This document shows positions 6,151 to 64,000 of a stretch of 64,000 bases of DNA, piece after piece. The notes beneath the pieces are model-generated. The model made no database searches and had not been told where the DNA came from. It saw nothing but the letters and a program-made list of their open reading frames with translations. This DNA comes from Atractiella rhizophila. Lineage: Eukaryota. The stretch spans positions 62,001 through 126,000 of the forward strand of contig MU271236.1 in assembly GCA_021432655.1 (NCBI GenBank). The letters run 5' to 3'. The position numbers and the translations under genes were made by a program. The number at the start of each line of letters is the position of its first letter. Positions within the stretch are counted from its first letter, which is position 1.

Positions 6151-7679
6151 ATGGTCTTCAAACTCATCCCTCTCCTCTTCGCTACAGGAGCCCTGGCCGC
6201 ACCCGGCGTTCTGACTGCCCCGTCGATTGTGTGAGTCCACCGTCTGCCCTGCCCCACCTTACTCCCTTATAGACGGTGGAACTGATACGCTTCTTGGCTC
6301 ATAGTCGATGTGGTGCTACGATAACACCTGAACAAGCGGCGCAGGCGAACACCAACTTCTTGCAAGCGCTGCACGATAAGGGTTTGACCATTGATGATTT
6401 TTCCCACGAGGGGAAGAAAGACAGCCCTCTGTCAGCCAGAGCCGTGGAACCCATCAACGTCTGTGCGTACACTAACCGATTTTTACTGGAGTTGTCCAAC
6501 ATTGAAGGAGGATAGACTTCCACAACATATATGCCACGGAGGACACTCAGGGTGGATACCTCACCGATGATGAAATTGACCAACATATGTAGGTCGCATT
6601 CTCTCATCCCTCCGGCGCGGCTCGGACTCACCCAACTTTTTGTCCGGTGTAGAACGACCCTCAACGATCAGATGGCAGCAACAGGAACCTCTTACAATCT
6701 GGTCAGGATTGACAGGACACAGAACGAGGACTGGTTTAATGGAGCCGGGCCGGTTCTAGACGCGGACACTGGAGGCGAGAACGATTTGGCCGTTCAGATG
6801 AAGAATTCCTTGAGGACAGGCGGCCCAGGGGATTTGAACTTGTATACGGTTGCGTTCAGGGTGTGTACATCTCCAAGACACCTCACTTGTTCTGAATTGT
6901 GGACAGGACGGAGGTCTGAATGGATTGCTCGGATACGCGTTCGTCCATCTGCCTGTGCTGAGGACCATCGCTTACTTCAAACCAAAGAACTTTCCCTTGG
7001 GACTATCAAACGGCGCCAGAGTTGGATGGAGTGGTTTATCGCTTTGGTCTGTCGTCTCTTGCCACCTATCCCTTTCCTAAACTGACATCAACCTAGACAC
7101 TGGACCCGGAGGAGCTGGCGCTGTACCGTCTCTTCTTCTTGAGAAGAGTAGCCTTGATTGACTTGGAGAATGACAGCCCTTCGACGAGGGCAAGACCCTC
7201 GCTCACGAGGCTGGACATTGGCTTGGCCTCTTCCATGTCTTCCAAGGAGGATGCGACGAGCCTGGCGGTACATCTTTCTCCATCCTTCCATAAAATAGCG
7301 TGTCCTTAATGAAGAAACAGACTACGTCCCCGATACGCCTCCTCAGTACGTGGCATCATCCGGTTGCCCAGTTGGACAAGACAGCTGTCCTGCACCTGGC
7401 GTCGATAGCGTTGGTCTTCCCTTTCCTTCTCGTGATAATTGCAGGTATTGACTTGTCCGGTACTGGATGTAGATTCATAATTGTAGGTCGTATTACTTTC
7501 TCAAGTGAACCCGACTTGATTGGCGTCATAGACATGGATTACTCGGACGATGCATGTCTGAACGAGTGGACCCAAGGTCAAGTTACAAGACTTACCGCTC
7601 TGTACGCCGATCAACCTCCATTTGTCATGTCGTTGTTAACTTTGGCGGCAGTATCGCTACCTATAGAGGTATAGTCTGA
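6151..7679 (+). CDS. Secreted M43 (pappalysin/ulilysin-like) zinc metalloprotease, copy 1, 12 exons
   Basis: Signal peptide [19 protein letters not shown] propeptide, [27 protein letters not shown] zinc motif and IHNYMDYSDD Met-turn, rebuilt across 11 GT-AG introns. Confidence 0.92.
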
Positions 7680-9436: not shown

Positions 9437-10936
9437 ATGGTCTTCAAGCTCATCCCTCTCCTCCTCGCCGCTACGGGGGCCCTAGCTGCTCCCAGCGCTC
9501 TGACTGCACCGTCTGTCGAGTCCGTCCACCACGCCCTCCTTCCGACCCCCATAGTGACTTTGTTCTGATACTTCTTTGCACAGTCGATGTGGCACTTCCA
9601 TATCCTCCGAACAAGCGACAGAAGCGGACGCCAATTTCATGCAAGCGTTGCACGATAAGGGATTGACGCTTGATGACTTTTCGCATGAGGTTGAAAGAGA
9701 CATCACTCTGACGACCAGAGCCTTGAATCCCATCAACGTCTGTGCGTACTTTCCCTACTTTACTAGCCTGGAAAATAGCTGAGATGAGGATAGACTTCCA
9801 CAACGTCTTTGCAACGCCTGATGCTGCTGGTGGATTCCTCACCGATGATCAGATATTCAGTCATATGTAGGTCACTTGATGTCCACTGTCTGCGACGGCT
9901 CATTATTCCTGTCTGGTATAGTACGACCTTGAATCGACAGATGGCAGCAACGAGAACTTCTTACAGGCTTGCAGCGATCGATAGGGTGCAGAACCCTGCC
10001 TGGTTCTATGCCGCTGGGCCGGTTCGAAGCACAGGAGCTGAGAACGACTATGCAGTTCAAATGAAGAACTCCCTGAGGAGGGGAGGACCAGGGGACTTGA
10101 ACCTGTATACAGTGGCTTTCAGGGTGCGTATAAGACAATATGCTGTCATCCGGTGTTGAAGGGTAGTTAGGACGGCGGCTTGAGTGGATTGCTCGGATAT
10201 GCGTTCGTTCAGCCTGTGTCTGTTGAGCATGGTTACTAACTTAAAACAAAGAACCTTCCCGTGGAACTTTCAAGGGGCTCCACAATTTGACGGAGTGGTT
10301 TATCGATTTGGTAAGTCATCTCATCACGTCCTTTACTTCATAACTCACACTGATCTAGACACGGGACCTGGAGGATCCGCAGCTGTATGAATTTTGCTCT
10401 CAAAAGTTCTAGTTTCCATTGACTCGGACTTCGACAGCCCTTCAACGAGGGCAAGACGCTTGCTCATGAGGTCGGACATTGGCTTGGTCTCTTGCATGTC
10501 TTCCAAGGAGGATGCAACCAGCCCGGCGGTAGGTTCCTTTACATCCTTCTACGAATTGAATATGGTTGACACAGACACCAGATTACGTCCCTGATACGCC
10601 TCCTCAGTATTCCCCTTCATCTGGTTGCCCAGTTGGAAAAGATACCTGCCCTGAGGCCGGTGTAGATAGCGTATGCCTTCCCTTTCTCCCAAGACAATCG
10701 AAGGGGATTGACTTTGTTGGATAATGTAGATTCACAACTGTGAGTTTGGTGTTCCTGAGGTGTGCTCATCTCATCAATGTGACAGATATGGATTACTCGG
10801 ACGATGCATGCCTGACCGATTGGACCCAAGGTCAAGTTGCTAGACTTAACGCTATGTACGCCGATCGTTCTCCCTTTCTGCAACATTGTCAGCTTACCAT
10901 TTCCACAGGATTGCGACCTATAGAGGTATAATCTGA
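9437..10936 (+). CDS. Secreted M43 metalloprotease, copy 2
   Basis: Same exon structure as copy 1; [11 protein letters not shown] and MDYSDD intact. Confidence 0.92.
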
Positions 10937-22868: not shown

Positions 22869-25800
22869 TTAAGCCATGTTCCTCATGTGCTGGAGATTGT
22901 TGGCAATTTGTTCGATCGCTGATAAACGATTAAATTCCTCGATGAGCCCGTCCAAATCTTCATCCTTCCAGTCAGCCAGTTTCTTGAATCTCTCGCCTGC
23001 AACCGAAGTCCCAGGCATGGGGAAGGAAAGTGGCTCCTCACCCGGTTCAATCCCTTCTTTATGAAACCTTTCCTCCAGAGTCATATTGGATCGCATCTGT
23101 CGAGCATGTTGTTCTGGTTGAACTTCACTCTGCTGAGTAGGAAACTGTAACTCTGGTGGGCTTTTCTTCAGTATTTCGTCGATGATCATCCTCCTCTGTT
23201 GAACATCATCGACACCTTCAAGTTCTGTTGAGAGCCTATAATGGTTTGTAAGCCATTTGAGCGTCAACCTCTGAAGCTCGCGAAGGGAAAGAGGGCTTGG
23301 ATCGGAAGAACCAAAACGGCGTAGACGGAGACGGATGGGTGGTTTCACGAACCTGTACAGCAAGCTTCCAACGGTAAATTCAGGATTTGGTTCATGTCCA
23401 CCCTGACCATACTGGTTTGCAGCAACCTGAGCTTGAGCAGCTTCCTTAGCGGCCCGATACTGCGCCAGCTGCTTCACCATGGCAGCCCCAGCATCACCCA
23501 TCGATTCTTTCTTACCATCGCCATTCTTCACAGTTTTCCCCCATCGCTCCGCGTGCTCTGTCGCATCTGCACCACGACTAGGACCAAATAAGCCACGGAT
23601 CGAGAGTTTGCGCTTTCGTAAGCCATTACCATTGGACGATGGACCGGGAGTAGAGATTTTTCGCTGTTTCGTCTTCTCTGGTTTAGGGCGGCGCGGGAGG
23701 GGCATTGGCAGGGGCTGCTGAGGTATCCAGCTGTCCACATTGAAAGGTCTATCGGTTATGACACTCGAATGGATGGACGGCGCCGGTTCTGTAACCTTGA
23801 CCATCCCACGACTTCGATCCTTGTTCTTCTCCTTCTTGCTCCGCTTGCCTTGCCGCTCTGGAACCGCGGAAGCCGAGGAAGCTTTTCGGAGTTGATGGGA
23901 GGGGCGGCGGGAGTTTGGAAGTGTCACCGGAGTCTCGGTTGAGGAAGCATCAGACGACGGGGTAGAAGCCGTACGACGGAACAACTCTTCTCTCTCTGCA
24001 AGGATCTGCTCCATCATCTCGAGCAGTGCGCGCTTCTTCTCCGCACGGGAAAGCCTTCGTTGCCGCTTCTCCTCTGCTTTTGCATCCCATTCTGGCCTGG
24101 CGGGTTGTTCCATAAACTCTTCTTCACACTGCTGCTCCATCTGATCCGGAGTATCGAACATATGAGGATCAAAATTATTTGGAGATATCGGGTCGTCCGC
24201 ATCGTGAGTCGGTTGAACATGCCCAAATGAGGGTTGGAAGAATTGTCGCTGTTGATTAACCTGGTGTTGCTCGTTGATTTGCTGCTGCAACCGTTCCACC
24301 TCATGCTGCATCTCACTCTCCTTCCTCATCCTCTCCTCTAATTGCATCCTCACCAGTTCCTCCTTCTCCCTCTCCTTCATCTCTCTCGCCCTCCTCTCCG
24401 CTCTCTCCGCCTCCCTCCTCTCTTCCCGCTGAATCTCCAAAAGGGTCACTTGACCCTTCAACAATTCCAACTCTTTCGTCAAGAAGCGGACACCTTCAAG
24501 AACAGTTTTGTATTCGGACCCCGTTTTGCCCTGCGATTGCTGCATGAGCTGATAAAGCCTAGCCATTGACTCGAGCAGGCTTGTCTGCACGTCTTTCACT
24601 CGGTTCGTGGCTAATAGGGTGCCATTGAGGTTAGGATTACAAAGAAAGGCAGGGCAGCACGCACCATCACTGTAGGTGTGTACAGCTGTGTTGATCTCCC
24701 TCAACTCGTCAGCATGTACCGCTGCCCCTTCTCGATAAGCACGCAGGATCTCATCACTTGTTGCCCTCTCAGATGAGATTACGCCTGGTGTGTACTACAC
24801 CTCTCTTTAGCTCTAATCAAGATACAACGCTCAAGACGAACCGCTGCATCGGCGCGCTTACCAGCCATCCCATAGTCGTCGTGCTATGGCAACATCAGTA
24901 ACAGGGCTAAGATGGGCGAATGCATCCAAAGACTCACTCCTTCGTCTCTGCTGTCATTCCTCATCATTCTCCCTTCATCTCTGCTGTCATTCCTCATCAT
25001 TCTCCCTTCATCTCTGCTGTCATTCCTCATCATTCTCCCTTCGTCCCTACTGTCATTCCTTATCATCCTCCCTTCGTTCCTACTTTCATTCCTCGTCAGC
25101 CTCCCATCGGTCCTACTCTCCTTCCTATTCAACGTCAACGTGGTCCTACTGAGCGCCGCCTCCCTCTCCTTTAAATTCTCCAACCTACTATCCGCCCTCT
25201 CGCTCTCTTCCTTAACAGTCCCCAGTGGGAGGCTCTCCTTCCTCTTCCTTCCCCACGTAAACAGCCTCTTCAAACTCATTGCTCGCTTCGCCACAGTAGC
25301 CACATCCTCTCCCCCGCCACCTCCTTCTGCCTTCACCCTTTCCTTCTCAGGTGGGTACTCGCCAGGTACAGCAGGAGTAGACACGAAGTGATTCGAAGCT
25401 CGACCCTCCGGTATCCAATCCCGCTCCTCTGCTCCCGACGCTGGAGGAAAGACTCCATCGGCGTACCGATGCATCTGCGAGTCCAATGAGAACTTTGGGA
25501 ACTCCAGTGCATTCTGTCCGACCGGAGACATTCTCAAATCCTCCTCCACCCTCCTGACGGCTGTCGGCATCCTGTTCAGCCCGTTCCCAGCCCCAGCGAA
25601 GTCAATATGGGCAGCCCTCTCTTGTTCAAGTTCATCCCTCCCCTCCCTACCCATCGTAAGAGGTAAGGAAAGCCGAGAGGTAGACCCCAATCTGGCAGAT
25701 CCGAACCTTGCCGTCTGACGCGTTGGCGTTATCGAATCCCTTCCGCCTCCAGCCCCAGCTCCGAATCCGAAACGGCCACGAGAGGGGGTATTCGAATCGC

Positions 25801-27313
25801 GCTCGTCCATGCCGAAAGGAACGCTGCTAGCCCTACTGTGGATGGTATCGGTCACGCTCGAGAAGCTCAATGGGCTTCCGGTGCCTATCGTCTCCCCAAA
25901 TCCGCTCGCCGATTCAGTGATTGTTCCAAGTCCATTCGTGATAGGAATGAGCGCTCGATTCCTCAACATCTCCTTCATGTCCTCTAGCGCCTCATGGAGA
26001 CCGTCCACCTCCATTCCTCCAGCCTGAGAGAAAGCAGTGGATGGCAACGACCACCCACTGTGCACCTTGCCTGTCGTTCCTCGCGTCGGGACCTCCTGTG
26101 CGGTCCAGAGGAAATGAGAACAGAGAGCGCAGGAGGGAGAGGAGGTCCCTAGGTAAGGAAATATGAAAGCGTTCCTCGGCGCGTGATGGGAAAGGAAGAC
26201 GAAGGCGGTAATCTCGGGATGTACCCTGGATGAGAGGGAGAGGGTCGTCTCGAAACGTTTGGCGATCTCGCTGAAGTTCGCAGCAGCACGATTTATATAT
26301 CGATGGATTGTCTGGACTGTGGGCGGGAGGGAGAGAAGGGAGAGAAGCGGAGAGAGCGACAGTGGAGTAGGCTTTGCAAGGGGCGGGGAGGTGGGGATGA
26401 TATGTATTTGAACGCCGGGAAGGGAGGGTAGGATCTTGATCATCGTCTGATGCGCACCACGGAGCCTGGAAAGAGCACAAATAGACTCCCAGACCTTCAG
26501 ATAAGGCTTCTCACGACTGTGGAGCGCAAAATATTCTCTCATTGCCTTCGAAGTGGTGAACTCGTAAGCCAAGACGATAAGTTCACCTGTCGTCCTTTCC
26601 TCATTATTAATGGAGGCGTAGAAGGATTGTAAACCCTTGAAGATGGGAGAAGGATGTTTAGTCTCGTAAGGCTGACCCAAGAGCAGACCTAAGCTTCCAA
26701 GGACGTTAGGAAGTAAAGCGACTGTGAGATCTGGACAGGCATAATCGAGGATAGCGTCCCAAAAGAGCTCTTTGGCAGTTACGTCAGCCGCTGCGGAGAA
26801 AAGCTGATACTCCTCCAACCTCCTCAAGAAGGCTTCATCCCTCCCAACTATCTCTCTTCCCTCGACGGCAATCCACACGCCGTTGTCTACCAATGCTGTG
26901 ACAACGGTGCGTTGAATGGCCAGGATCTCGGCGAGACGGTCGAGGAACTTTCGGCGGAGCTTGTCGGATCGCGAAGGGGTTTTGGACATGGCACGGGATG
27001 AGGAGGGAGGGAAGATCTGGCCGCCATTTCTGAAGGAGTGGAGAGTGATGAGGGAGGCGAGGAGGGGATCCATGGAGTCCTGAGAGGAGGATTGCAAGGC
27101 TGGATGGTCGGTGAAAGGGTATGCGCCAGCTACAGACGAATATGGATCCTGGTCGGATGGATATTCGTCCGATATTGGGAGTTGGTGGGCGAGTTGTGAC
27201 GGAGATAGGTACGAAAGCTGGTGATTGTATGGCGGATAGGCTGAACCTTGGTCGTTGGAATCAGCGCCAGGATATTGGGCATAGTTTGCCCTTGTGTGCT
27301 TGCCATCCATCAT
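22869..27313 (-). CDS. Large (about 1400 aa) protein: OTT_1508-like Zn-dependent deaminase domain plus repeat and coiled-coil C-terminal half
   Basis: VHPEI...YLGTSSPSCALC...TRGTTGKVHSGWSLP motif set. The 809-aa and 611-aa ORFs join in frame through GT-AG introns near 24935-24884, 24861-24786 and 24664-24613 (EG/HDDYGMA/GVISSERA...YSD/ATNRVKD). Confidence 0.7.
24937..25125 (-). repeat. 33-nt coding tandem repeat (RMMRNDSRDEG), about 5-6 copies
   Basis: Unit ctcccttcatctctgctgtcattcctcatcatt repeated, with increasing divergence toward 25125. Confidence 0.92.
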
Positions 27314-28356
27314 TCGCTCGATGTTTGGCTTGACGTTGGGCGTATTTTGAGATGTTGGGCGATAACCAAATAGATCCAGCTTGTCAATCTTTCGTCTCAG
27401 CGATCGTTCCGTCCGTTTTTCGCCGTTTACTGGTGCTGCAATCCCCCAAAGTCAACCACCACGAACACTTCATTGGACGGTCATGCCTTCGCTGCCAACA
27501 AGCCTCCAAGCTCACAGGAAAGTCCTCCAAAAGACAGTCCACGTTCCTTCGTTTCTGTCGTCAATAGTCGCACTAAGGCTACTTCAATAGGCCTAAACTC
27601 TTCACTTCTGGTTAGAGCAGTGATGTCTCTTCCAGTGCCCAATGGGCCGACGGCCCTGATCTTGGATTTGATTTGGTCACGGTCGTTTTCTGCATCGGCG
27701 TTTTGTCGGCGACAAGGAACAAGCAAATAAGCACAATCGCCATCCTCCACTCGCTCAAGTCAAACAACCAACTTTGCTTCTTCAGCTCTCACAGGGCAGG
27801 GCGACGCGTTAGATAGTTAGACACTGGTGGTATCGATTTCCCAGAGGCATTAAGATATTGGAGACTGGGAACGAGAAAGAGAACGCGGTATGTCTCGAGT
27901 TTGTCACAATTCATGGGGATCGCATCTAGTCATTTTCTTCCAAGCGTGAATTTGTGTGTAAACTGTCTTGCTATAGTGAGCATCTCCAGGAGTGCCATCA
28001 GTCAACTTGATGCGCAACAAAATCTGCATAGAAGCCGTGCACATATGCTATTCATTTTGTCTCTCTGGATCGTCGATTGGCAGTAATGGCGAGGAGTCGC
28101 GCCTGCTGCATTCCAACTGTACACGACTTGGTCTCTTCATTACCCGAGAACGAATGCATGTGCATCAGTCAGGCTGGTTTCTCTTTGTGAGAGCCTTGAG
28201 CAGATGCTGAGGGTAGAAAAAATGCTGATCTAGCAGTTGGCTCAAAAACCAGACAAGTTGATACGGATAATGAAACCTTTACCTAAAGCTGTCGATGGCA
28301 ATGTCCTTCGCTCCACTGACTGACACCATGCCTCCGTCACAGTTTTTGGCACAAAG

Positions 28357-55411: not shown

Positions 55412-56670
55412 TCTTGCGCCGTTTAAAGACACATCTGTGACAAGGAAGAGAATGAACACGGAAAGAGAGGAATCAAGCAGGTTGCCTACGGTATACCACG
55501 CTGTGTGCAGAGGGTGCAAAATGGCGGATCGGTGTTGTGTACTCGAATGCACCTGTGCAAATGGACCAGTCAGCTCCACTGCAAGTCACAGAATGTTGGT
55601 AATAGATTGTAGAAAAATACAGAAACTATGTAGCATGTGCTACCTCTTACTGCCCAGCGAAGCTGTGCGACAATGGTGATGGTCTAGTGAAGATTGACGA
55701 CTTTTTCCAGAAAATTATTGAAAGCCCGCCGTCTTTAGTTGACTCAGGGCTGATTCAAAAAGTTGCTCTCTCCTACTGGTAAGTCAATACACTTCATTCG
55801 TCGCGATGTAATGAGAGGACTCAGAAGTTTAGCATGGCTGTTGCTAGAGTAATTCCATTTGTCGCGGCATAGGGATATGATAGGGTCATACAAGTAAAGG
55901 AGAATCCGCTGAAGTTTTGTCTCAAGAATGTGAATTTGACTTCTATGGCCGGGAAACACAGTCGAGTTGTGACGCAGGAATGAATCCAATTCACTAGCAG
56001 CTGGAGCAGAAAGTCACATTTGTGCATCCCTTGGATTCTGGAGAGTACGAGAGCCAGGGGACGGCCGAGTATACCACTGTGGGGTACTAAGTATTTAATC
56101 GTGAAAGGTAACTAGATTCATGTCTCGGAAAATTAAATGAGAATGAAAGTGCTTGCTGACGCTAGATTCGCAACGCAACGCTGCGTTAGGTCTTGTAGGA
56201 GTCATGATATAGCTAAGGTAATCACAATTGACAGCTTTAGAAGAAAAATAAGGTAGATAGGAGCGCTATCAGCGTTCATCGGCTAGTCCGACATTGTTTC
56301 TTGGACGGACATTTACACCTTGCTGACTGCCTCTTGATCCACCTCCTCATCACACTTCAAGCAAAAGACAATTTCGATAAAATTTGAGCGGTATTGAACG
56401 TAGAAGTGACAAATGACACGACTTACTTCCTCTTCATGCTCCGACATGCCTCGCACGCATAAACAATCGGTTTCCCCTGTCCCCTCTTCCTCTTTGCACC
56501 ACCTATCGTCACCTCAGTTACTTTATAGACATCTCCCTTGTCACTACTGCCACTCGCTAACACTATCGTATGAGAATCACTCTCAGGAGAGGTCGAAGAG
56601 TCAGTGGACATGATCGTTTGGTGGTGTGTCACTATTCCGCCCGCGGAACCACAAAAAATGAAAAATGCGG

Positions 56671-56704
56671 GACTCGAACCCGGGCAAGAACTAGCAGGTA
56701 TATA
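56671..56704 (+). promoter_or_regulatory. snRNA-type upstream element GACTCGAAC (-58) and TATATA (-30) of U4
   Basis: Position relative to the U4 start; a similar motif pair recurs upstream of the four small RNAs at 61.9-63.0 kb. Confidence 0.65.
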
Positions 56705-56728
56705 GAGCGCCCAGCCTGACAACTCAGT

Positions 56729-56866
56729 ATCTTTATGCTCGGGCACGCGTCATATCCAGTGAAGCTTAGCTGAGGAGTGACCATTTGCTAATTGCAAACT
56801 ACCCATCCAGATCCTCTTCTTCAACCTCCGTGTTAGGAAGGAATTTATGGAACCCTTGCGGGATCT
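56729..56866 (+). ncRNA. U4: U4 spliceosomal snRNA
   Basis: 5' ATCTTTATGCTCGGG resembles yeast U4 AUCCUUAUGCACGGG. Kink-turn 5' stem-loop GTCA-TAT-CCAGTGA-AGC-TTA-GCT-GAGG-AG-TGAC, U6-pairing TTGCTAATTG as in human U4, Sm-like site AATTTATGG (56842-56850) and a short 3' hairpin. Confidence 0.9.
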
Positions 56867-57054
56867 TTGTTTTTTAGCTTTCTGATACGTTTGTTTGATT
56901 AGCGAACAGGGACAGAGCACCTCGTGTTTGTTTGAACCTTTGCTTGATCTCATTTTGCCACTGGTGTTGTGACTTCAAGTTTTCGATTATTAATCGATTA
57001 TAATAAGTAGATCAATTCTGCATGAAATGGATTGCGAACAGATTCGGTTGCACA

Positions 57055-61548: not shown

Positions 61549-61973
61549 TTTGTCGACGTTGGTTGAAAACGAGCTTTCACACTCTCGTTCTGGCTGGCCG
61601 CTCTAATTTAGAGTTTGGACTTGACGCCCAGATGTTCCCGATCACACTACCCCGTAGTCCTCATTCTGACTACGCAGCTGACTACGGCAGCCAGCAGGCG
61701 TGCGTTTCTGTTTTTCCCTGCGACGCGTTGGTTGTTTGAATAGTGCGACGGTGCGACGCATTGTGGAAAGCCCCTGACGTGTGTTGAGCGCATTGAACGT
61801 CAGGGTTTCTTCGCCTCAGTCCACGGCGCAAGACCGAACCTCCACGACTCGAATCACCCATCGTCATCCCGAAAGCGTTCTGAATCAGTTTCTTTCCCTT
61901 TCCTATTGCGATAGCTGTGGGATTCGAACGAGCGAGGAACGGAGGTTTATCAATGCATCTTTCAAGTTTGCTG

Positions 61974-62047
61974 GTGTCCAGTAGCTCTCAAATGCTCACC
62001 ATAGCCACCGGAATTGAAATCTGCATATCTCTGGACATGTTCTTTTT
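61974..62047 (+). ncRNA. Putative novel tRNA-like small RNA, unit 1
   Basis: GTGTCCAG/CTGGACAT terminal stem, TAGCTC box, hairpin CGGA-ATTGAAA-TCTG, T5 at 62043-62047; upstream GATTCGAAC at 61921. Confidence 0.7.
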
Positions 62048-62159
62048 ACTATTTTCATTCTCACACGAGGTCTAGACCTGAGGAGCAGAAAGAGATTGAA
62101 CGAACGGGGTTCGAACGAGAAAGACAATGAATATATTAGTTCCTATTTTAAACTCTCAA

Positions 62160-62252
62160 ATGTCCAGTAGCTCCTCTACTAAACTGGTAAAGAATAGTCT
62201 AACAACTGTTTGAGTGCGTTCAAGTCGTGCATCTACTCTGGACGTGCTTTTT
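62160..62252 (+). ncRNA. Putative novel tRNA-like small RNA, unit 2
   Basis: ATGTCCAG/CTGGACGT stem, TAGCTC, hairpin AATAGT-CTAACA-ACTGTT, T-arm-like GTGCG-TTCAAGT-CGTGC, T5; upstream GGTTCGAAC at 62108 and ATATAT at 62131. Confidence 0.75.
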
Positions 62253-62572
62253 GCCACCATCGCGTCTTGATGCTGATTCTTCCATTTCTTTCTTCTTTGC
62301 ACATTTTCAGGTCTACATTACATTTTGGCTCAGAACGATCATCCATGCACTTTAAAATACCCCTGCAATCTCAAGCGCTTTTGCGTTTCTGGATCCACCA
62401 GTGTTGACCATTGACGGTGCCAACCATAACGACCTTGCGAACTTACGGTATTCTCTACCTTCCGTTCCTACCTACTTGCAGCACTTGGGAGAAGAATATT
62501 CTACGAACGAGATTCGAACTTGATCGTACATGACCACGCAGACGACTCATATATGCCCGATGCAACGTGGGT

Positions 62573-62652
62573 CGTGTCCAGTAGCTCTCTTCAACTACGC
62601 AATCAGACTGCTAATCTGCCGTGCATCAACACTCACTTGGACATGCATTTTT
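62573..62652 (+). ncRNA. Putative novel tRNA-like small RNA, unit 3
   Basis: CGTGTCCAG/TTGGACATG stem, TAGCTC, hairpin CAGA-CTGCTAA-TCTG, small GTG/CAC hairpin, T5; upstream GATTCGAAC at 62511 and ATATAT at 62549. Confidence 0.75.
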
Positions 62653-62936
62653 GTTACTTTGACTCGGCCTCCTTTCTTTCAGTGAACCTATGCACATCCC
62701 TGTGTGTTTTTGCCTCCCCTTAGTTTGCCATACAGAGACAAGTGTGTGGAGCAGCAAGGGATTAATCGATTACAGGATTGTGCCCTTCTCATGAGTAAGT
62801 CTGGTGTTTTCTCTCCTTCCTTCTGTGAGTAAGAGGACAGGAAAGGATGTTGAATGAGGAAAAGACACTCTACGAACCGGATTCGAACGTAAACAAAACG
62901 TATTCACTTTATGGGTTCCTTTTACGACCTTGCCTC

Positions 62937-63018
62937 CATCCAGTAGCTCTTCAATTTAACAATCAATAGTTTGGGTCTATTTGAGTGCTTCACGGCACCA
63001 TCTGGGTGTGCGCTTTTT
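62937..63018 (+). ncRNA. Putative novel tRNA-like small RNA, unit 4
   Basis: CATCCAG/CTGGGTG stem (compensatory changes relative to units 1-3), TAGCTC, hairpin AATAG-TTTGGGT-CTATT, GTGC-TTCACG-GCAC, T5; upstream GATTCGAAC at 62880. Confidence 0.75.
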
Positions 63019-63511
63019 GAAATCTTTTCATTTCATTGTCACTTTCTTTCTGACACTGTGTTGCTCCCTCTCCCTTTTCTTTTTCTCTTTTTCAGAAAGT
63101 CAATCTCCGCGCTTCGAGCTTTGGATCTCATATTGCAAATGATCCAACAACCTGTCCGTTCATCCTAACTTCGAAATCTAAAGAACTAAGGTAAGTCAGA
63201 GTCATGGTGTCGTAAGATTCGGACCTTTTGAGACCGGAAGTCAACGTGTTCTCAACTTCCTGTTTCTGCGTTGGCATTACAGTAGCTGTACATTATATTC
63301 CCTCTGATATTTCCTCAGGTAAGTTTGTGAGTCTAGATTGAGCTCTTCACAGGATCCTTTTTTACGGCTTTTCTGTTCCTTGAAGCCCTCCCTGTTCATG
63401 TCTGGACCTATAAACTGACTTTGATCATCAACAGGTCTGAACAATTGGTAATCGAGGAACTGAAGATATCTCACTCTCTACAAAGGCGACACATTCTCTG
63501 TGACCGTTATC

Positions 63512-64000
63512 ATGAAGCTCGAAGATCAAGTCGTCCTACATCCCGTCAGGTTTGTACTCCTTCAACAATTTCATCATGCTAACTCGACGGCAGCGTGACG
63601 CCCTCTCCACCCTTCGTAGTCTCATCCACCTCCCCCGACCTTCCTCAGTCCGTCATCCAACAACTAAACCAAATCCACGCCACCATCATCAACCTTCCCC
63701 CACAACTCCAAAACATCCCTCCACCACCCCAACCCGTCCCCAATCAGCGTTCGCAGACCATCCAGAAAGCGCGAGAAGAGGGAAACACGCATTTCAGGAA
63801 CCAGCGTCCCCAAGAGGCCATCAAAGCGTACACCCTCGGGTTGTCCGTAGCCTCCTCCCGTGCTTTATGGGAATCCGCCCAGTATCCGAGGGAGGAAGTA
63901 AATGCGTTGTTGATGAACAGGAGCGCGGCTTACATGGCAGTCAAGGACTGGAAGAGGGCGGAGATCGATGTCAGGAAGGCGCTGGAGGGAAGAAAGGGTC
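63512..64000 (+). CDS. SEC72: Sec72-like TPR protein, 5' part (runs off window)
   Basis: After one intron: QLNQIHATII...IPPPPQPVPNQRSQTIQKAREEGNTHFR...AIKAYTLGL...RALWE...LLMNRSAAY, the Sec72 pattern. Confidence 0.75.

Follow-up and report, generated by a model that had tools for sequence, protein, structure and literature searches.

What are the four short, similarly built units that lie side by side in an intergenic region of the basidiomycete Atractiella rhizophila? The stretch of DNA that we analyzed (the window) comprises 64,000 nucleotides (nt) of contig MU271236.1 (assembly GCA_021432655.1, positions 62,001 to 126,000 of the forward strand), and all positions below are those of the window. 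An earlier note on this DNA, made from the letters alone, had described the units as a tandem cluster of tRNA-like small RNA genes with a shared scaffold and variable loops. Our analysis suggests that they probably arose by local duplication and form a family of four small noncoding RNA genes, each transcribed on its own, accompanied by one probable decayed copy. The units occupy a divergent intergenic region of about 2 kb, between the end of a minus-strand open reading frame (ORF) near 61576 and the start of a plus-strand, TPR-containing ORF near 63514. No credible coding capacity was found in 61650-63450, where the longest stop-to-stop frame is 101 amino acids (aa), and none of the five frames of the region that were tested (69-101 aa) matched Pfam, in agreement with its earlier description as intergenic and without a credible ORF.

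Reading of the sequence placed the four units exactly where they had been proposed (Table 1), and the invariant box near the 5′ end of each was likewise recovered as the 11-mer TCCAGTAGCTC, identical in all four. This box has four exact matches in the 64 kb, all of them on the plus strand at the box positions of the table, and no further match, exact or with one mismatch, was found in the window beyond the four units. The 5′ strand of a terminal helix consists of the two bases ahead of the box together with the first five bases of the box, and its partner heptamer lies 43-64 nt downstream. The helices of units 1 to 4 (TGTCCAG/CTGGACA, TGTCCAG/CTGGACG, TGTCCAG/TTGGACA, and CATCCAG/CTGGGTG) join the 5′ and 3′ ends as had been written for them before, with standard pairing in 28 of 28 helix cells versus 12-46% for partner strands shifted by 1-3 columns. 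A purine ahead of the helix can pair with a U after it in three units, and the helix of unit 3 can be extended to 9 bp. After the helix, all four units continue with TG, one to three more bases, and exactly five T residues (T5), and the longest T run inside the units is T3. The presence of TTTTT after the 7-bp stem had been noted correctly, but not its distance, which was given as 4-5 nt and is in fact 3-5 nt (5, 3, 4, and 5 nt in units 1 to 4).

The four-unit pattern is not attributable to chance, since the 11-mer is exact in all four units and absent elsewhere in the 64 kb, and since a search pattern that joins the promoter core, the box, and the 3′ strand (TTCGAACN{40,65}TCCAGTAGCTCN{40,70}YTGGR) matched the four units and had no match in 100 shuffles. 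A covariance model of the four units, a check that the earlier note had proposed, was built from the helix and box; in a search of the window it scored units 1 to 4 at 43, 79.4, 53.3, and 79.3 bits, with the next best match at 11.4 bits.

Table 1. Positions of the predicted RNAs, their promoter elements, the U4 gene, and the possible fifth copy in the window
Feature	Position	Strand	Details
Unit 1 predicted RNA	61974..62047	+	Helix 61975-61981 / 62031-62037, box 61977-61987, spacer TGTTC, T5 62043-62047
Unit 1 upstream element GGATTCGAAC	61920..61929	+	Minus-strand reading CGTTCGAATCC, B-box-like
Unit 1 TATA-like box TTTATCAA	61946..61953	+	29 nt ahead of helix
Unit 2 predicted RNA	62160..62252	+	Helix 62161-62167 / 62238-62244, box 62163-62173, spacer TGC, T5 62248-62252
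Unit 2 upstream element GGGTTCGAAC	62107..62116	+	
Unit 2 TATA-like box AATATATTAG	62130..62139	+	About -31 to -29
Unit 3 predicted RNA	62573..62652	+	Helix 62575-62581 / 62637-62643, box 62577-62587, spacer TGCA, T5 62648-62652
Unit 3 upstream element AGATTCGAAC	62510..62519	+	
Unit 3 TATA-like box TCATATATG	62547..62555	+	About -28 to -25
Unit 4 predicted RNA	62937..63018	+	Helix 62937-62943 / 63002-63008, box 62939-62949, spacer TGCGC, T5 63014-63018
Unit 4 upstream element GGATTCGAAC	62879..62888	+	Minus-strand reading CGTTCGAATCC
Unit 4 TATA-like box TTTATGG	62908..62914	+	29 nt ahead of helix; read directly from sequence
Possible decayed fifth copy	63216..63362	+	AGATTCGGAC at 63216, TACAGTAGCTG at 63278, T6 at 63357
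U4 snRNA gene	56670..56875	+	GGACTCGAAC 56670-56679, TATATAGA at 56699, RNA 56729-56863, T6 56870-56875

The upstream promoter that had been suspected can now be described more specifically. Ahead of all four units lies a GGAYTCGAAC-like decamer, about 55-65 nt from the helix and with its TTCGAAC core at 51-62 nt, followed at about -25 to -31 by a TATA-like box rich in A and T. The same two elements were found 5 kb from the units at a U4 small nuclear RNA (snRNA) gene, the sole match in the window at the Rfam gathering level (71.7 bits), with GGACTCGAAC at -59, the TATA-like TATATAGA at -30, and a run of six T residues (T6) that begins seven bases past the Rfam-defined end of the RNA. The spacing from element to TATA-like box is 29 nt at U4 and 25-29 nt at three of the units. 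On the minus strand, the U4 element reads GGTTCGAGTCC, a perfect fit to GGTTCGANTCC, the B-box form. Within the window, 12 sites match GGAYTCGAAC with at most one mismatch, and only five of these, at the four units and U4, have a TATA-like box and an RNA-like unit behind them; the other seven have neither a TATA box nor a T-run and are located in coding-like sequence. The U4 snRNA gene and the four units thus have the same type of two-part promoter. Because U4 shares the element and the TATA-like box with the units and is followed by T6, it may be a transcript of RNA polymerase III (Pol III) in this fungus, or one upstream factor may serve both Pol III and RNA polymerase II (Pol II).

Units 2-4 also contain a second upstream word, (G/T)(A)ACGAAC, located 2-4 nt ahead of the GRTTCGAAC element and forming with it a tandem CGAAC..TTCGAAC (62094-62116, 62497-62519, and 62866-62888); unit 1 and U4 have no such word. 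Descent of the units from U4 was considered and rejected, with local alignments at z -0.2 to 2.9 and a best p of about 0.012 (unit 3, uncorrected for eight tests) that is not significant. The short words common to U4 and the units (UCCAGU..AGCU, CCAUCCAG, and UCUUCAAC) are not collinear.

Similarity between the units was assessed by pairwise global alignments scored against shuffles. It was random (z -2.0 to 1.6) both in the interval from 81 to 160 nt upstream and in the 80 nt downstream of each unit; the 80-nt promoters were weakly to clearly similar (z 1.5-6.9, highest for units 2 and 4), and the RNA bodies were similar only for units 2 and 4 (z 4.1) and units 3 and 4 (z 3.3). With the flanks and most of the RNA body at random similarity, enough time has passed since the duplications to randomize neutral sequence. 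Surviving in all four units are the upstream element, the TATA region, the 11-mer, the 3′ strand, the TG, and the T5, that is, selective retention of exactly the promoter, box, helix, and terminator elements. The earlier picture of a shared scaffold with a variable body holds on this evidence, the scaffold being a common promoter, a 5′ box, a terminal helix, and a T-run.

The stretch at 63216-63362 is probably a decayed fifth copy. Its upstream element AGATTCGGAC carries one change and its box TACAGTAGCTG two mismatches, and in global alignment its body compares with those of the four units at z 2.8-4.7. Its score is 46, where the best of 1000 random segments of the window reached 44, but it is inflated by the choice of this stretch for its box and T-run. 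Neither a TATA-like box nor a terminal helix was found in 63216-63362, and the covariance model of helix and box gave no match there. If real, this copy may show how a unit looks when it drifts neutrally without selection. Splice-donor-like GTAAGT sites also occur in the sequence that this stretch overlaps, upstream of the TPR gene.

From this anatomy, which can be read directly in the DNA, we infer that the units are transcribed, by which polymerase and between which ends, and what the RNAs bind and do. Pol III is the likely polymerase because each gene ends at T5. Each gene would be read from an external two-part promoter, made up of the GGAYTCGAAC-type element and the TATA-like box 25-31 nt ahead of the RNA, and Pol III would make from each unit a 70-90-nt RNA with a flush 5′ end, the transcript ending in the T5. 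The first and last nucleotides of the RNA would close as a 7-9-bp helix, with an invariant single-stranded UAGCUC at the helix-loop junction on the 5′ side and with UG, 1-3 nt, and an oligo-U tail on the 3′ side. The helix and the UAGCUC junction could then form a protein-binding platform and the U-tail a La-type site, with the divergent body, usually containing one small hairpin with a 6-7-nt loop, conferring specificity on each paralogue. The RNAs would act as scaffold or decoy RNAs in a ribonucleoprotein (RNP), roles of Pol III transcripts that are reviewed in PMC6884708.

Several observations weigh against a family of structured small RNAs. The evidence base for the family is one 1.4-kb stretch of one genome, and the assignment to Pol III is drawn from two features, the T5 and the TATA-like box. 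The covariation is weak. In the helix of unit 4, two adjacent pairs are changed on both sides with pairing kept (UA to CG and GC to AU), so that the stem covariation reported in the earlier note is present, but both double changes come from unit 4 alone and the observed score was reached by 79 of 500 column shuffles. Because five of the seven helix positions lie within the invariant box, conservation of the 3′ strand could have causes other than pairing, and the box itself (about +3 to +13) might work as a promoter element within the gene and not as a signal at the RNA level. Folding energies are ordinary (z -0.13, -1.26, -0.52, and -0.94) and no better than those of the reverse strands, and RNAalifold recovered only the terminal helix from the units. 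Homologues outside the window were sought in one metagenome scan, using the pattern of promoter core, box, and 3′ strand, and all 50 loci look like chance matches when judged by helix completeness, T-run, GC content, and model score; the pattern required exact matches and would miss diverged relatives. The loci score at most 19.5 bits with the covariance model, only one of the 50 has a T-run (on a contig of 62% GC), and their number is about that expected from the information in the pattern. Atractiella rhizophila belongs to the Atractiellomycetes (Basidiomycota, Pucciniomycotina), a poorly sampled class, and this poor sampling fits the lack of relatives in the collections searched.

The interior of the units is less uniform than had been described. 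A small internal hairpin with a 6-7-nt loop, previously reported for each unit, appears in the minimum-energy fold of three units (in unit 3 as CAGA-CTGCTAA-TCTG) but only in an alternative fold of unit 4. Similarly, of the T-arm-like hairpins claimed for three of the four units, that of unit 2 is convincing (GTGCG-TTCAAGT-CGTGC, with 5 bp and the loop TTCAAGT), but those of unit 4 (4 bp, 6-nt loop) and unit 3 (3 bp) are not. A likeness to anticodon loops, based on a U at loop position 2 in all four units, was set aside, the hairpins having been chosen after the fact and that of unit 4 lying outside the minimum-energy fold.

Such features bear on whether the units are decayed tRNA genes or a tRNA-derived repeat resembling a short interspersed element (SINE), an origin that we regard as highly improbable. 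It would account for the first 13 nt of the RNA, which read like an acceptor strand followed by U8, A9, and the start of a D-stem (GCUC), for the T-arm-like hairpin and cloverleaf-shaped minimum-energy fold of unit 2, and for the U at the second hairpin-loop position throughout. The tRNA-like label nevertheless did not survive the searches: ARAGORN found no tRNA gene in the window at its default setting and, at a 70% threshold, made no plus-strand call on any unit despite 208 calls in the 64 kb; Rfam models of tRNA and Y_RNA type had no match at E<=10 in 61800-63200; and RNAalifold showed the terminal helix only. The D-stem partner is missing, T-arms are absent or defective in three of the four units, and each copy has its own external promoter. 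The copies are tandem and local, and no copy that would indicate SINE-like dispersal was found outside the cluster within the 64 kb. Relaxed ARAGORN runs did give minus-strand calls over the upstream elements (62499-62571 and 56658-56726 at ps80; 61910-61995 and 62094-62183 at ps70), which carry no weight against a background of 38 calls per 64 kb at ps80 and 208 at ps70. A remote tRNA ancestry of the units is conceivable. Other known families fared no better, in line with the earlier suggestion of a previously undescribed family: no Rfam family matched the units at the gathering threshold, and the cmscan search that had been recommended, run on 61800-63200 at E<=10, gave three spurious matches only, to snR40 (minus strand), bxd_5, and NPPA-AS1_3. 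The units were also examined by eye for a K-turn, C/D or H/ACA boxes, and an Sm site, and these readings were rejected, with the required GA, CUGA, ACA, and AU(4-6)G signals absent or inconsistent. Among the titles listed for the literature on Atractiella and in that on basidiomycete U6 and the B box we found no such RNAs described, and the motif text occurred only in unrelated primers among the matches listed.

The conserved elements might instead act as DNA, in modules of the TFIIIC/TFIIIB type (B-box-like element, TATA, and the half A box TAGCTC) that serve as a boundary or regulator of the divergent genes, any transcripts being by-products. The minus-strand readings of the element, CGTTCGAATCC at units 1 and 4 and GGTTCGAGTCC with its fit to GGTTCGANTCC at U4, agree with this idea, as do the box sequence TAGCTC, which matches positions 1-6 of the tRNA A-box consensus, the location of the cluster within a divergent intergenic region, and the weak thermodynamic signal of the units. 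We consider it unlikely, however, as it leaves unexplained why the complement of the box lies at a variable distance from the box (43-64 nt) but only 3-5 nt from the T5, why unit 4 has compensatory changes, and why all four units share one orientation, and as the same promoter drives a bona fide RNA gene, U4. That promoter can also be taken as a general snRNA promoter used by Pol II, in which case the units would be snRNA-type genes for capped small nuclear or nucleolar RNAs and the T-run would be incidental or a 3′-end signal. U4 is a Pol II transcript in well-studied fungi and animals, its promoter is common to the units, and the spacing of element and TATA does not separate it from them; against this stand the T5 at 3-5 nt past the helix in all four units and the T6 at 7 nt past the end of U4 itself, which point to Pol III for all five genes. 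Inspection by eye showed neither an Sm-site consensus nor C/D or H/ACA boxes in the units, no snoRNA or snRNA family matched them, and a Pol II origin seems to us improbable.

If the units are indeed a family of small RNA genes, what kind of RNA do they most resemble? The likeness to nematode sbRNA and Y RNAs, vault RNAs, and Dictyostelium Class I RNAs that the earlier note drew is apt for the layout, but it extends to architecture only and not to demonstrated relatives. The closest architectural match, by analogy, is with the Class I RNAs. According to PMC7919456, these have a short closing helix of the 5′ and 3′ ends that is kept in structure and not in sequence, an otherwise highly variable remainder, and a conserved motif of about 11 nt adjoining the 5′ strand of the helix; a putative upstream element lies about 60 nt before the start and is also tied, citing work on spliceosomal RNAs, to Pol II and Pol III genes. 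The same paper states that many Class I genes are followed by a T-run, that one Class I RNA binds a protein with an RNA recognition motif, and that the RNAs are about 60 nt long, with 18-39 genes per dictyostelid genome and none found outside the Dictyostelia (PMC7919456). Our units have the same layout of terminal helix, adjacent motif of about 11 nt, upstream element, and T-run. In contrast, the motif, the upstream element (DUSE in Class I genes), and the RNA ends all differ, with (G/A)UGUCCAG or CAUCCAG at the start and UG(N)UUUUU at the finish of the units versus AAG...CUGU in Class I RNAs, and the sequences are unrelated. The units are also longer (70-90 nt) and number four copies in one window.

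Y RNAs and sbRNAs are portrayed in PMC4726728 as RNAs of about 100 nt with paired 5′ and 3′ ends, a variable internal loop, a 3′ oligo-U, and small paralogous families; their lower stem includes a 7-bp helix that is the Ro60 site, for which a bulged C is needed along with a 3-nt bulge in the other strand, and no Y or sbRNA candidates are said there to have been identified in fungi as of 2015. The units share with the RNAs so portrayed the paired ends, the variable interior, the oligo-U tail, and the occurrence as a paralogous family. Membership was rejected, given that the helices are perfect 7-9-bp duplexes (fully paired over the 7 bp) without the Ro60 bulges so described and that Rfam gave no match. 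Unlike Y RNAs and sbRNAs as there described, the units have no upper stem carrying the (A/G)UG-CAC/U motif around the loop.

Vault RNAs also have terminal pairing and an A-box-like UAGCUC near the 5′ end. The units contain UAGCUC in a similar position, with unit 2 adding the B-box-like GTTCAAGTC, but the assignment fails with half an A box (TAGCTC) only, a B-like GTTCAAGTC in one of four units, and no Rfam match. According to PMC7916137, vault RNAs are Pol III products of 80-140 nt with a presumed relationship to tRNAs, and their genes have internal A and B boxes; the MVP gene is reported there as absent from fungi.

For the promoter, as distinct from the RNA, a parallel exists in the trypanosomatids. 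PMC4950102 describes trypanosomatid snRNA genes, including U4, as dependent on an upstream B-box-type element of the opposite strand, with all snRNAs made by Pol III; the first nucleotides of the RNA gene also contribute to the promoter, and box A, about 104 bp upstream, and box B both belong to a complete tRNA or tRNA-like unit in divergent orientation. The genes in our window resemble this arrangement in having a B-box-like element read on the opposite strand, at U4 as well. They differ from it in that the element is a B-box-like 10-mer at about -55 combined with a TATA-like box, with no tRNA-like unit above the ARAGORN background. A second parallel is with type 3 Pol III genes (animal U6 and 7SK, plant U6 and U3), which have an upstream element, a TATA box at about -30, and a T-run end, the element being shared with Pol II snRNA genes. 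In sequence, the units likewise have an upstream element and a TATA-like box at about -30, common to an snRNA gene, and a T-run terminator, but the GGAYTCGAAC-type element is unrelated in sequence to the animal proximal sequence element or the plant upstream sequence element. To our knowledge, type 3-like Pol III promoters have not been described for fungi.

The family itself is new; its general kind is known but has not been reported from fungi. A bolder and rather doubtful proposal is that they are the first fungal counterparts of the Y, sbRNA, and Class I panhandle RNP RNAs, specific to the Atractiellomycetes, with a platform for a dedicated protein, partner-specific loops, and an external promoter of B-box-like element and TATA shared with U4. 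If that proposal were true, it would mean either that Pol III transcribes an snRNA of the Sm class or that an snRNA-activating factor is shared, and neither is known in fungi.

Fungal Pol III transcriptomes have been seen as tRNAs, 5S, U6, RNase P, and 7SL with a few oddities. A panhandle RNA family in a basidiomycete, if expressed and selectively maintained, would make the question of fungal Y RNAs and sbRNAs accessible to experiments, the fungus being culturable. As far as the literature searched shows, the shared promoter would be the first defined snRNA-type upstream element for the Pucciniomycotina, and it would help in annotating further small RNA genes and serve to drive guide RNAs. A further question raised by these findings is which polymerase makes U4 in this fungus.

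The rest of the window is consistent with a fungal genome, as the earlier note had proposed. An SNF2 exon shares 99% identity with a protein of Atractiella rhizophila, and its next best matches reach no more than 65%, one of them from Mixia osmundae, which assigns the window to A. rhizophila or a close relative. Pfam matches within the window include an OTT_1508 deaminase, Fungal_trans, APP1, and exons of a DBP4-type helicase. The OTT_1508-like deaminase domain (E 2e-09) lies in a long minus-strand ORF at 24884-27451. Two similar plus-strand stretches at 6815-7030 and 10078-10300 both start with CCAGGGGAYTTGAACYTGTATAC and have later blocks in common, one of which is a TACTAAC-like branch site ahead of AG; their appearance is that of exons and an intron from protein-coding genes that were duplicated, not of small-RNA promoters.

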